IMG/VR virus record: IMGVR_UViG_2713896773_000013 | Reading direction: 5' to 3' (one strand) | DNA from: a virus | Lineage: Duplodnaviria; Heunggongvirae; Uroviricota; Caudoviricetes | DNA: 5,296 nucleotides | In this document: piece by piece, positions 2,567 through 5,296 of the stretch | How positions within the stretch are numbered: position 1 is the first letter of the stretch | Layout: every line of letters starts with the position of its first letter | The notes under the pieces: generated by a model | Database searches by the model: none | The model's input: only the letters and a program-made list of their open reading frames with translations | What the model was told of the DNA's origin: nothing | Position numbers and translations under genes: made by a program

Positions 2567-2597
2567 GGTTCACTCCGGTTGAGTGGTTCGGTGGGCG

Positions 2598-3191
2598 TCA
2601 TTCAGTCAGGGACAGGCCGCTGATTCCGGTAATCCCGGCAATTTCTTCGCTGACGGCTGCCAGTTCACTTTCAAGCCCGGTGCGTTCGCTGACCAGTGCC
2701 GCCACGGTCTTACGGCGCTCTGCCAGTGAGGGAAGTTTGTCATTACCCCACGTCACGCTCTTATCCTTCTTAAGCGCTTCGGTCAGTCGGGTGGCGACCA
2801 CATCCGGGAAGAAAAAGCAGAGCTTGCGCATTACCGCCATCCCGGTATCAGCCGGGGGGACGTTTCCTCCCAGCCCCACCAGACGGAACAGACCGGAAAT
2901 ATCGCCGTTCTCATTTTCCAGATTGCCCCAGCGTTCGGCGTTCCCTTCACCGCCGGAACCGTTGCAAAGAGCACGCTTGAATGACTGATATTCTTCCTGC
3001 CCGAATCGCTCAATATATTCAGGAATAAAGGAACAGTAATCATTAAGTGATAACGGCATATCCTGTAATGCGGTTATTTCGCCATTAATATCACCAATGC
3101 GACGAGAGAGCTTTTCTTTCTGCTCATTCAGGGAGGTAAGGTTATTTTTAACGGCGTTCAGTGCTTCAATGAGGGAAATAACAGGTTTCAT
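2598..3191 (-). CDS. Hypothetical coiled-coil protein, 197 aa (function unknown; sits where a TMP chaperone would normally be, but does not look like one)
   Basis: ORF with ATG at 3191-3189 and GGAG about 10 nt upstream. Stop is 31 nt upstream of the TMP start; start is 1 nt after the stop of the preceding gene. N-terminal heptad-like segment (LIEALNAVKNNLTSLNEQKEKLSRRIGDINGEITALQD), central Gly-rich region, C-terminal predicted helix (LAERRKTVAALVSERTGLESELAAVSEEIAG). I recognise no family. Confidence 0.6.
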   Translation of the reverse strand: MKPVISLIEALNAVKNNLTSLNEQKEKLSRRIGDINGEITALQDMPLSLNDYCSFIPEYIERFGQEEYQSFKRALCNGSGGEGNAERWGNLENENGDISGLFRLVGLGGNVPPADTGMAVMRKLCFFFPDVVATRLTEALKKDKSVTWGNDKLPSLAERRKTVAALVSERTGLESELAAVSEEIAGITGISGLSLTE

Positions 3192-3192
3192 T

Positions 3193-3807
3193 TTAATAAC
3201 TCCAGATAAAAGGTGTAGTGAGGGTGAGCGCTTCGGAATAGGAGACGTTGCAGGCTTCGCTTACATCCTTTATTAAAAGGTGCTGCGCTGCCCTCTGGCT
3301 GTCGGCTATGCCGTCGAGCTCTGAGAAATAAACGTGTGATTCATTGTGACCAAAACAAACCGGGTAAGCGCTTTCCATAAACTCCACCTGCTCAAGCCCC
3401 TTTACGGCTGGCGGCTGTGCGCCGAGAAAACCAATATGGCGAAGATACCAGGCACCAGTTCCGGCCGGGTTACGCGCTTCTCCCGGCCTGTAGAAAGCGG
3501 CAGACACTTTTTTATATAGACCTGACTGAACCATATCCAGCAACCTGTTATCAGGCTTAACCAGCGCGAAAAGTCTGCCGTTTTTACTTATCAGTCCGGT
3601 GGTTTCACCATAGGCGGGACTGTTACTGGCCGGATGCCCCAGGCACAGCGGCGCACCATAACCCGCGCGATGATAGCCGTTATAGGCTGCTGCCATGTTG
3701 TCGATATCCTCGTCGGAAAAGCTGATTTCCTGCCCCGCCATCGCGGTATGTGTTCCCGCCCGGAATATCTCAATAGTTTTCCAGTTACCAATATTGATAT
3801 CTGTCAT
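3193..3807 (-). CDS. Hypothetical protein, 204 aa, N-terminal half resembling the phage P2 GpO prohead serine-protease domain (MEROPS S73-like); C-terminal 60 aa unrelated
   Basis: ORF with ATG at 3807-3805 and AGGGA about 12 nt upstream, 1 nt after the stop of the Mor-like gene. By-eye alignment to remembered P2 gpO: FRAG...GQEIS..DEDIDNMAAAY versus FRIG...GRVIS..AQDIQEMAETF; CLGH versus INLEH (candidate catalytic His); GRLFALVKPDN..LYKKVS versus GKWALFAKITP..AQKVYTS (candidate catalytic Ser); WYLRHIGFLGAQPPAVKGLEQVEF versus YLVGLAVTDDPASLGTEMLEF. Not verified by any search. Confidence 0.5.
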   Translation of the reverse strand: MTDINIGNWKTIEIFRAGTHTAMAGQEISFSDEDIDNMAAAYNGYHRAGYGAPLCLGHPASNSPAYGETTGLISKNGRLFALVKPDNRLLDMVQSGLYKKVSAAFYRPGEARNPAGTGAWYLRHIGFLGAQPPAVKGLEQVEFMESAYPVCFGHNESHVYFSELDGIADSQRAAQHLLIKDVSEACNVSYSEALTLTTPFIWSY

Positions 3808-3808
3808 T

Positions 3809-4336
3809 TTATATTTGTCCCTGTTTCATATCGCGGCACTCTTTGTTTTTCTTACGCTCGGCGGCAATAATCTGATAAATCCACTGAATAGAATTGCCAT
3901 ATTTCCTGGCTAATTCCCGATGAGTCATCCCTTGTTTGTAATCGGAAAATATCCTGGCATTTCTGTCGAAAGAGTTTCTGGCTGCGCCATTAGGTATATA
4001 GAAATTGTTACCTTTAAAGACCCTTCTAAGGTGTTCTGTAATTTCCGGGGAAATGATTTCGGCCTGAGCCGAAAAGCAATGTATTGTAAGCAAAGCCTGC
4101 GCTATCACACCTGTAAGCTCATGCAGAAAAGATGTTGCTTTAGGGGCGTCTTCACATTCTATTGGCATGTAATTCTGGCAACCACCAAGATTATCAGATA
4201 TATGCAAAACAATTTTATTTGCTGCACTACTTGCCTGAAGTTGTGAATAGCCCGCATCAGTCAGAAAATCTTCAATCGCATCCCCCATTTCCCCCAGAGT
4301 GTCAGATGTTGCGTACAATCCCTCTCTTGTAATCAT
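3809..4336 (-). CDS. Mor/C-family (phage Mu late-gene activator-like) transcriptional regulator with an N-terminal extension, about 175 aa
   Basis: C-terminal region KGNNFYIPNGAARNSFDRNARIFSDYKQGMTHRELARKYGNSIQWIYQIIAAERKK matches the Mor-family signature (GG.Q.YIP....R..RN..I...F.G.....LA..YG.......Y..I) ending in an HTH. Start placed at ATG 4336-4334, which has GAGG 7 nt upstream; the ORF track's in-frame GTG at 4342 has only 1-nt spacing. The gene is clearly AT-richer than the downstream genes. Confidence 0.65.
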   Translation of the reverse strand: MITREGLYATSDTLGEMGDAIEDFLTDAGYSQLQASSAANKIVLHISDNLGGCQNYMPIECEDAPKATSFLHELTGVIAQALLTIHCFSAQAEIISPEITEHLRRVFKGNNFYIPNGAARNSFDRNARIFSDYKQGMTHRELARKYGNSIQWIYQIIAAERKKNKECRDMKQGQI

Positions 4337-4344
4337 AATCACAC

Positions 4345-4393
4345 CTCGGTAATGATAAAGATGTGCGCTAAAAAGGCTTTATAAAGCTTTATG
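4345..4393 (-). promoter_or_regulatory. Candidate activator-dependent promoter with dyad-symmetric operator upstream of the Mor-like gene
   Basis: Minus-strand TATCAT (+ strand 4352-4357) is a 5/6 match to the -10 consensus, with no convincing -35 hexamer. Two overlapping perfect 12-bp palindromes, GCTTTATAAAGC (4376-4387) and ATAAAGCTTTAT (4381-4392), containing TAAAGC direct repeats at 10-bp spacing, are centred roughly 37-42 bp upstream of the predicted start site. Confidence 0.35.
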
Positions 4394-4537
4394 AGGCGTC
4401 TTTCTGGTGACAAATCAGCACATACACCATTAACGCTTTAAAATGGCTTACAGGCTTTTTTAGCGCGGGTTACTAATGTGGATTAAGAATATGGTTTTGG
4501 GGCGGGGATGTTTTTTAATGTACTTTAGATATGAAGA

Positions 4538-4559
4538 AGCCCCTCAGAGGAGGGGCTTG
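4538..4559 (-). terminator. Putative intrinsic terminator after the 96-aa gene
   Basis: Perfect 9-bp GC-rich stem AAGCCCCTC / GAGGGGCTT with a 4-nt loop, 16 nt after the TAA stop (4575-4577). Followed on the minus strand by a T-containing but imperfect tract, CTTCATATCT. Confidence 0.45.
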
Positions 4560-4574
4560 CGGGATTACGCCAGA

Positions 4575-4865
4575 TTATTGAGGTCGTCTGTCTTTCCTCA
4601 ATCCATCAAGTAGCGCCATGGCATCAGTAACCAGTATGCCAGCAGCATCCGTAACCATCGAAACATCAGAGGATGCACATGATTTATCCATACCTAATGT
4701 TGACGCAAAATCAAGTAGCTTACGAACTGCGTCAAGTCGATAGGTGGCAGAGTCGTAAATTAACTCCTGATTAGCATCAGTCTTTAAAAACATAATATCA
4801 TCAGAGGCACCTTGTGAAAATGACGGCATCGCACGGAAAGTATTTTGAGTTTCAGCCTGTTTCAT
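4575..4865 (-). CDS. Hypothetical protein, 96 aa (unknown function)
   Basis: ORF with ATG at 4865-4863 and GGAGGG about 9 nt upstream. Its start overlaps the stop of the upstream ORF in an ATGA arrangement (4862-4865). AT-rich composition. No recognisable motif. Confidence 0.5.
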   Translation of the reverse strand: MKQAETQNTFRAMPSFSQGASDDIMFLKTDANQELIYDSATYRLDAVRKLLDFASTLGMDKSCASSDVSMVTDAAGILVTDAMALLDGLRKDRRPQ

Positions 4866-5296
4866 TGTGCAGCCCTCCGGCTAATAGCGAATTTATTATA
4901 AACTTCATAACTGGCAGCATTCAGTCCGGGGTTGTATTTATCAGCCAGAGCACAGGCAATCATATGTTCAATAAATTTTGTTATTGCGTTAAGTTCGGTT
5001 TCGTCTGAATAACGCAATGCCACTTTGAGTAACTCGCGGCAATATTGCTTTTTATTCTCTTCGATTTGGCCTGATTGTTTTATTCCTGCCTTTTTATCTA
5101 ACTCGTCCTCAACAGGCAAAGATGAGATATCCTCTTTATTGGTTAGCGTTCTTTCGCAAATAATATCTTCACCAGATTGAATTACGCGCTGCAACTCTCT
5201 GGCGCTCATGCGAAGAATATCATCAAGCGTGTGGTCGTTATATGCCCCACCACTGGCAAGGAGATCCAGTGTCACTTCATCCAGCCGGGCAAGCAG
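4862..5296 (-). CDS. Hypothetical protein, 5'-truncated by the window edge (at least 144 aa visible)
   Basis: The reading frame stays open from the stop at 4862-4864 up to position 5296. The start at 5275 given in the ORF track is a GTG, and the frame continues open upstream of it, so the true start probably lies outside the window. Acidic, Lys/Glu-rich central stretch; no family recognised. Confidence 0.45.
   Translation of the reverse strand: MLARLDEVTLDLLASGGAYNDHTLDDILRMSARELQRVIQSGEDIICERTLTNKEDISSLPVEDELDKKAGIKQSGQIEENKKQYCRELLKVALRYSDETELNAITKFIEHMIACALADKYNPGLNAASYEVYNKFAISRRAAQ

Follow-up and report, generated by a model that had tools for sequence, protein, structure and literature searches.

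The window analysed here, the whole 5,296-nt stretch of DNA from the IMG/VR virus record IMGVR_UViG_2713896773_000013, carries a gene cassette that accounts for two thirds of a self-contained 7.8-kb element, for which the complete, 37,048-bp PhiKM-type BcepMu-like prophage of Escherichia coli EC958 is the candidate helper. According to the listing of open reading frames (ORFs) the window holds six genes, all on the minus strand and one of them cut by the window end. Four of these follow each other closely in the order Mor/C-family activator (177 aa, 3809-4342), p204, a short prohead protease (3193-3807), p197, a helical protein (2598-3191), and tape measure protein (TMP; 825 aa, 89-2566), separated by gaps of 1, 1 and 31 nt. 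In the last gap (2567-2597, minus strand) a GGAG ribosome-binding site for the TMP gene was recognised by inspection of the sequence. The initial annotation had given the same gaps and a ribosome-binding site of its own for the TMP gene and had called the layout unlike any phage tail module; both statements hold, the TMP gene being preceded by no tube or chaperone gene. The layout is not due to chance: more than 10 loci have it, they come from at least 8 genera, and their genes are under purifying selection. A megablast search of the window against 50,697 phage genome records gave no match, and Rfam detected no RNA family in the window or in the element.

The TMP matches PF10145 (E=5e-20), TIGR01760 and phrog_28 over residues 1-824 and is similar over its full length to the TMP of the related phage PhiKM, the identity being about 71-72% over residues 1-637 and 28% over the last ~90, in line with its earlier identification. 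Mor matches PF08765 (E=1.7e-25) over residues 69-168, C-terminal helix-turn-helix included, with 89.5 bits against a cut-off of 24.9. The gene had thus been recognised correctly as that of a Mor-like activator, although it starts with the GTG at 4342 rather than with the ATG at 4336.

p204 was assigned to phrog_976 'head maturation protease' (E=1e-46), but the match covers only profile positions 31-173 of 415. Pfam at E<=0.1 yielded no family for p204, nor for the 371-aa protein of PhiKM, and PF05929 (P2 GpO) was unmatched; neither Pfam nor NCBIfam assigned p204, p197 or the small protein p96 to a family, and a PDB sequence search with the p204 profile returned nothing. In the AlphaFold model of p204 (predicted local distance difference test, pLDDT, 83.5) a disordered linker (146-167) joins a beta-rich assemblin-fold domain (~10-135) to a C-terminal helix-turn-helix (171-201) that is modelled with confidence. 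With this fold and the invariant catalytic residues H58, S102 and H124 the protein shows the hallmarks of prohead serine proteases, and its identity to the N-terminal portions of the proteases from BcepMu and PhiKM is 43-46%. Its homologs form a short class of 183-247 aa and a long class of 282-371 aa, which have the C-terminal helix-turn-helix in common (hhalign 91%, E=9e-7). Because of this shared C-terminus we read p204 as the 371-aa protease-scaffold of the helper minus its central scaffold segment of ~150 residues; in KS10 the central segment is annotated as a nested scaffold gene (PMC2628397). The 'GpO-like protease domain' proposed initially was therefore right as to architecture, protease plus scaffold in one gene, and wrong as to family.

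In the model of p197 (pLDDT 82.6) long helices (7-43 and 156-194) surround a helical core with the conserved motifs DMPLSLNDYCSFIP, CFFFP and WGN...ERR. The former description as a coiled-coil protein is thus correct in that p197 is helical, but the conserved core between the terminal helices is not that of a plain coiled coil. Structure searches gave generic helical fold matches only, with no detectably similar solved structure, the PDB sequence search gave coiled-coil noise only, and hhalign found no relation of the p197 profile to the helper protease-scaffold or to a 250-aa protein of locus L019. The family comprises 46 clusters, and all those with a taxon name belong to the Enterobacterales. 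In three element types the gene next downstream of a p204 homolog encodes p197, the obligate partner of the short protease. A lone p197 homolog (55% identity, no p204 partner) was observed at L008 2065-2637, in an island with YfjJ-like, AlpA and TIR-domain genes.

Comparison of loci identified window base 1 as the terminal T of a ~7.8-kb element with TG...CA ends, which reads TGATCC... at one terminus and ...TCTAATCA at the other. The left terminus (1-60), defined by the boundary and the target duplications at 11 loci, contains transposase-binding-like repeats at 10-20 (GCGCGATAAAT) and 33-43 (GTGAGATAAAT); each of the two element ends has two GAGATAAAT-type repeats, ~23 nt apart, and a GCCGCA/TGCGGC hairpin is located at 23-57, beyond the TMP stop. 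The element occupies 11 independent insertion sites, every one with a perfect 6-bp target duplication (AGTGAA, CCAGAG, ATTGCA, CCACGG, GTAAAA, GCGATT, GGCTGT, ACATAT, CTTAGC, GCATCC and TCCTTA). Copy lengths range from 4.4 to 9.6 kb and are mostly ~7.8 kb, the shorter and longer copies being deleted or disrupted by insertion sequences. An IMG/VR metagenome contig of 7,799 nt extends exactly from terminus to terminus (TGATCC to TAATCA), and a 7,904-nt scaffold has flanks of 54 nt only; contigs ending at the termini are the assembler outcome expected for variable flanks, as with transposable phages. Along with the start of the window at the terminus, they are indirect signs of activity.

In E. 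coli AW1.7, which also holds a PhiKM-type prophage, the same genes are found within a ~7.8-kb insertion inside ynbC, and further copies reside in other chromosomal genes. The Citrobacter copy is inserted in an IncF conjugative plasmid (leading region), the Enterobacter copy in an IncFIB plasmid with phage-like genes, and the Yersinia copy inside the type IV secretion system (T4SS) gene cluster of an integrative and conjugative element (ICE). The copies at L003 20001-27786 and L005 5504-13298 are those in the IncF plasmid leading region and the ICE T4SS cluster. Insertion into plasmids and ICEs gives the transposase-less element a route between genera.

The gene content of the element is limited to TMP, short protease, p197, Mor, a Gp27 N-domain protein, a DUF3102-like protein and small ORFs, only three genes of the whole element being virion-related. 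It encodes no transposase, integrase, capsid, portal, large terminase, tube, sheath or baseplate protein, and it has neither an ExeA-like gene nor lysis genes. The element thus combines the features of a non-autonomous DDE transposable element (partner-like ends, target duplication, no transposase) with those of a satellite, as most virion and lysis genes are gone and a few that would act on a helper are kept. None of the features of P4-like elements or of PICIs (chromosomal islands inducible by phages), i.e. integrase, AlpA, primase-replicase, sid, psu, delta and cos, is present in the window-type element, and the rve transposase, the ExeA-like partner and the full head, tail and lysis modules of a BcepMu-like prophage are all absent from it.

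These boundaries bear on one idea of the initial annotation, an unusual module for tail assembly or TMP processing, which would belong to a complete phage extending past the window. The genes are indeed tightly linked to and co-transcribed with the TMP gene. However, the defined element ends refute this idea, since host or plasmid genes, and not the tube, sheath and baseplate genes that might have been expected elsewhere in a phage, start directly past both ends. Moreover, p204 is homologous to head protease-scaffolds, whose genes adjoin capsid genes, and the p204-p197 pair occurs without a TMP in other elements. We thus attach practically no weight to this possibility.

According to the KS10 paper (PMC2628397), prophages of the BcepMu type are marked by TG...CA termini and by rve transposases that are Tn552-like. 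The EC958 prophage has the termini TGATGCGCCGCGCGATAAAT... and ...TCAAGTCTAATCA (TGAT...ATCA) and is flanked by the 6-bp duplication GAAGAA. The left end of the element is identical to the tail-proximal end of this helper at 47 of 63 positions and to the other end at 35 of 62, and its right end is identical to the Mor-proximal helper end at 46 of 61 positions, giving 75% identity for cognate ends as compared to 35-38 of 62 positions for non-cognate pairs. The cognate ends, the same duplication length and the typical termini indicate that the element is equipped for a helper transposase acting in trans. It is thus almost certainly a transposable element mobilised in trans, and we infer that the helper is what mobilises it.

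Homologs of helper proteins encoded by the element are the TMP (72% identity), the protease N-domain (46%), Mor (33%), the DUF3102-like protein (30%) and the N-terminus of the small terminase TerS (41%). Left end, TMP and protease have the same order and orientation as in the helper, whereas Mor, DUF3102 and Gp27 are inverted, so that simple deletion does not account for the element; a counterpart of p197 is absent from the helper. The helper transposase is present in 640 of 5,426 complete E. coli genomes (~12%) and, as determined with a chimeric query, in 25 of the 33 E. coli genomes that carry the element.

The element genes are under purifying selection and are not decaying. Pairwise ratios of nonsynonymous to synonymous substitution rates (dN/dS) are 0.03-0.08 for the TMP (at dS 0.28-0.50), 0.08-0.20 for p204, 0.17-0.26 for p197, 0.15-0.23 for Mor and about 0.09 or below for p96, which is kept in L001, L003 and L005. 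Values of dS reach 1.4 and are strongly unequal between genes of one copy pair, pointing to recombination between lineages. A step in G+C content is located at window ~2800-3000, from 0.55-0.60 (TMP and 3' half of p197) to 0.41-0.47 (5' half of p197, Mor, p96 and DUF3102); together with the gene-specific dS it suggests a mosaic origin.

A decaying BcepMu-like prophage remnant, in which deletions joined a head-protease fragment to the TMP, is a further alternative. It draws on the homology to helper genes, on the shared order and orientation of left end, TMP and protease, and on the degenerate copies L009, L025 and L027, of which L009 and L025 have lost the TMP. The dN/dS values of 0.03-0.26 at dS up to 1.4, with intact ORFs in at least 8 genera, argue against decay, and the 11 independent insertions have intact ends and differing target sites, which exclude a single inherited event. 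The inverted genes and p197, which is absent from the helper and forms a pair with p204 in two other element types, do not fit either. We therefore consider a remnant very improbable. Among the readings of the initial annotation the head remnant joined to a TMP nevertheless comes closest as far as evolutionary origin is concerned; what fails is decay, given the selection and the 11 mobile insertions, and simple deletion, given the inversions.

The degenerate copy at L009 8001-12400 adjoins tRNA-Ser in E. coli ZH063 of sequence type 131 (ST131) and is also found in 22 other genomes. In this copy type Mor, p204 and p197 are intact, the TMP is gone and an IS5 is present, and all 23 genomes that hold it also hold the PhiKM-type helper transposase.

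The distribution of the p204-p197 pair is the main argument for a role in packaging. A search of IMG/VR for p204 homologs returned 80 loci, in 76 of which the homolog ORF could be delimited. The long form (282-525 aa) is found in 74 of these 76, with a PhiKM-like capsid gene just downstream in 62, and the short form in only two, both of which precede a p197 relative on 8-12-kb contigs. All short-form contexts inspected are small elements without a capsid gene. The pair is located at the end of autonomous mini-Mu elements of 7.5-8.4 kb (L010-L015, L020), which encode a repressor, Ner, a MuA-like transposase, a MuB-like protein, GemA, Mor and in most cases Gam, and whose target duplications could not be defined. 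It also ends ~8-kb integrase-AlpA-Ash-primase islands of E. coli (L016-L018, L028). In the element contexts inspected the pair is confined to elements of ~8 kb, which move in three different ways: the window type, the autonomous mini-Mu elements and the integrase/primase islands. One module on three unrelated backbones, all near 8 kb, suggests that it serves packaging into small capsids.

The gene set of the window has a distant parallel in a ~12-kb mini-Mu (L019 3000-15600, on a metagenome contig), which encodes a MuA and a MuB of its own. Besides Mor and a short protease it carries genes for a Mu gp44-like baseplate hub, a TMP of 647 aa and a truncated Gp27; capsid, portal and tube genes are lacking, and a p197 relative could not be detected.

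Overall, the cassette is best read as an operon that points leftward in a non-autonomous transposable element of ~7.8 kb, which descends from BcepMu-like (Bcepmuvirus) phages and is most likely a phage satellite. Packaging of the element as a satellite is probable. Once the helper enters lytic growth, its DDE transposase and ExeA-like partner would act in trans on the element ends, and the element would replicate and move. The element Mor would turn on its own operon and possibly helper late genes, much as P4 Delta does. The C-terminal helix-turn-helix of p204 is predicted to bind the capsid protein, encoded in the helper at L021 8586-9539, so that p204 and p197 could enter helper procapsids and steer assembly towards a small capsid for the ~8-kb genome, comparable to CpmB of staphylococcal pathogenicity islands (SaPIs). 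Such capsid remodelling by p204 and p197 is a possibility that falls a little short of being probable. The truncated small terminase, the N-terminal domain of Gp27, may bias packaging. The element TMP may go into helper tails, where its divergent C-terminus might evade TMP-directed exclusion or aid DNA delivery; its incorporation into satellite particles can be proposed only tentatively. TMP C-termini are targets of prophage-encoded assembly blocks (PMC10884400), which is one possible reason for a variant TMP.

Several observations weigh against this satellite. The kept catalytic residues of p204 also fit a plain protease role, and no scaffold, Sid, Psu or Cpm protein could be detected that resembles p197. 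The statistics of co-occurrence are weak: of the 25 genomes with element and helper transposase, 23 represent one ST131 clone with a degenerate copy that lacks the TMP and contains IS5, only ~2 of 5-6 independent E. coli lineages carry element and helper, and eight element-bearing genomes are without the PhiKM-type transposase. In a naive cell an element without transposase cannot integrate by transposition, which is a real difficulty; it could establish itself only by co-infection, by homologous recombination of flanks packaged with it, or as a passenger of a plasmid or ICE. Finally, the role of the TMP is speculative, with two degenerate copies (L009 and L025) having lost it.

The same carriers without helper (8 of 33 in E. 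coli) favour a different account, in which a non-autonomous transposon is kept for anti-phage interference and is itself unpackaged, being moved by helper-type transposase and spread via plasmids and ICEs. Short protease, p197, variant TMP and truncated TerS would then poison head and tail assembly or packaging of invading BcepMu-like phages and so shield the host population. Truncated helper assembly proteins are a classic dominant-negative design, TMP-directed assembly blocks are known (Tab, PMC10884400; Tai, PMC11364771), all genes are under purifying selection, and copies are found on a phage-plasmid-like replicon as well as in the IncF conjugative plasmid and the T4SS cluster of the ICE. 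However, PADLOC-DB 2.0 gave no component match for 15 proteins of the element and its relatives. The sizes near 8 kb on three unrelated backbones with the pair suggest a packaging constraint, as does the integrase-AlpA-primase backbone, a typical satellite chassis, and the terminus-to-terminus contigs suggest variable flanks. We regard pure interference as unlikely, though clearly worth keeping in view, and interference and satellite life are compatible with each other. The initial annotation had similarly offered an accessory or defence-type cassette within a prophage late operon; no prophage surrounds the cassette, so this context is wrong, while phage interference as such stays plausible. 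None of its three readings describes what the locus is; the ends of the element and the missing transposase were not visible to that annotation.

Upstream of Mor, the intergenic region 4343-4574 (minus strand) presumably holds the promoter of the Mor-p204-p197-TMP operon. It contains no good sigma-70 consensus, and a scan for sigma-70 promoters and terminators gave results at or below chance. A CTTTATAAAG dyad is located 44 nt upstream of the Mor start codon, and the dyad also occurs upstream of the helper protease-scaffold gene (L021 10670-10883). An activator site shared by the late regions of element and helper was considered, but the 10-nt dyad alone was found, which is too weak to use. 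Mor alleles are located at window 3809-4342, L002 23855-24205 and L005 8986-9336. The 177-aa alleles have an N-terminal extension of ~68 aa, and other copies of 110-121 aa are without it. Mor is the most variable element gene, with a dN of 0.32 between the window and L001 (AW1.7), where the neighbouring p204 has a dN of 0.01, and is 33% identical to the helper Mor.

The small protein p96 is encoded at 4575-4865 (minus strand, ORF listing), with an overlap of 4 nt between its start and the stop of the upstream gene, and a terminator-like hairpin follows it at 4540-4552. The upstream gene is the DUF3102-like gene, of which the 3' part is present (4862-5296, minus strand) before the window end truncates it; the assignment is based on PF11300 in the L002 copy. 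Elsewhere the gene is full-length, encoding 243-252 aa, and its product is 30% identical to the helper DUF3102 protein, which is encoded two genes upstream of the helper transposase gene.

The right arm of the element, outside the window, contains a small HicB/YlcI-like gene and ~1.1 kb without ORFs. It also encodes a protein of 122 aa, whose match to the small-terminase profile of Mu Gp27 is limited to the 50 N-terminal profile positions. At L001 25949-26564 the right arm has six palindromes of ~24-28 nt (AAAAGCGC..GCGC..GCGCTTTT), spaced 70-205 nt apart and partly overlapping a doubtful 79-aa ORF, and in the helper prophage one similar perfect palindrome (AAAACGCTCAGCGCTGAGCGTTTT) is found at L021 22032 inside the DUF3102 gene. 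These palindromes may serve as operators, as enhancers or as sites of the pac type. At L001 26629-26914 a perfect inverted repeat of 34 bp flanks 218 nt with a strong bidirectional terminator-like hairpin and a TTATAAT box. The segment was tested as a miniature inverted-repeat transposable element (MITE) and rejected, being confined to element-bearing E. coli genomes, where it is 98-100% identical; possible roles are those of an invertible switch or of a structured leader 5' of the Gp27-like gene. An alternative right arm, with a 316-321-aa ORF plus small ORFs, stands in for the HicB-like gene, the non-coding region and Gp27 in four copies (L002 25595-26758, L006 6159-7598, L025 6754-7704, L027 6438-7403). 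Its ORFs matched nothing in Pfam or PADLOC and may represent cargo or an accessory locus.

The known satellites, namely P4, PICIs, PLEs and PICMIs, exploit cos and pac phages. In the literature searched, the coverage of which is incomplete, no satellite of Mu-like, BcepMu-like or other transposable phages is described. We see an even balance for and against the broader proposal that natural satellites of transposable phages exist, with a two-gene capsid-hijack module spread over three mobility backbones and a window type that parasitises replication, integration, head assembly, packaging and tail assembly of one helper. If true, a satellite borrowing the helper transposase would represent a new form of phage parasitism and would tie MITE-like transposon biology to phage satellites. 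The short protease-scaffold would offer a testable model of capsid-size control, and the presence of BcepMu-like prophages in ~12% of complete E. coli genomes, ST131 included, adds to its relevance. As it inserts in conjugative plasmids and ICEs, the element may cross genera and influence which strains the helper can exploit.

A close analogue comes from the laboratory, where mini-Mu, with Mu ends and without A/B, is complemented and packaged by helper Mu in mini-Muduction. Like mini-Mu the element has two phage ends and no transposase, would use a helper DDE transposase in trans and is expected to be packaged by the headful with host flanks. In contrast to the engineered mini-Mu it is a natural family under selection, it adds a regulator, head-assembly genes, a TMP and a TerS-like gene, and its ends are of the BcepMu type (Tn552-like transposase, 6-bp duplication; 5 bp in the Mu type).

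Among the staphylococcal PICIs, SaPI CpmB and CpmA redirect capsid size. The element would resemble SaPIs in that a small satellite protein with the C-terminal capsid-binding end of the helper scaffold would compete with the latter, and in that the genome is a fraction of that of the helper. However, p204 keeps the whole protease domain and has no sequence or fold similarity to CpmA or CpmB, and the element relies on transposition instead of an integrase with pac or cos. In the same context of capsid-size redirection, rcm of SaPIpT1028 is covered in PMC12409344. For a satellite to encode a TMP is almost without precedent. A December 2025 preprint (PMC12822802) states that known satellites lack TMPs, except for the EPIPs of Mycolicibacterium and a TMP-like protein proposed for PLE11. 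The EPIPs share with the element that they are reported to encode a TMP (PMC12822802), but they are actinobacterial, use a serine integrase, also encode capsid, scaffold and adaptor proteins, and are unrelated to transposable phages.

With P4 the element would share the combination of a late-gene transactivator (Delta in P4, Mor in the element) with capsid-remodelling genes, and the related ~8-kb integrase-AlpA-primase islands have p204 and p197 where P4 has sid-delta-psu. The window-type element differs from P4 in being without integrase, primase, cos site, sid and psu. Its relatives proper are the BcepMu-like phages (PhiKM, the EC958 prophage, BcepMu and phiE255), with which it has in common the termini, the 6-bp duplication and a homologous TMP, protease N-domain, Mor, DUF3102 and Gp27 N-terminus, and from which it is set apart by its size of 7.8 kb as opposed to 37 kb, its rearranged orientations and the extra p197 gene.

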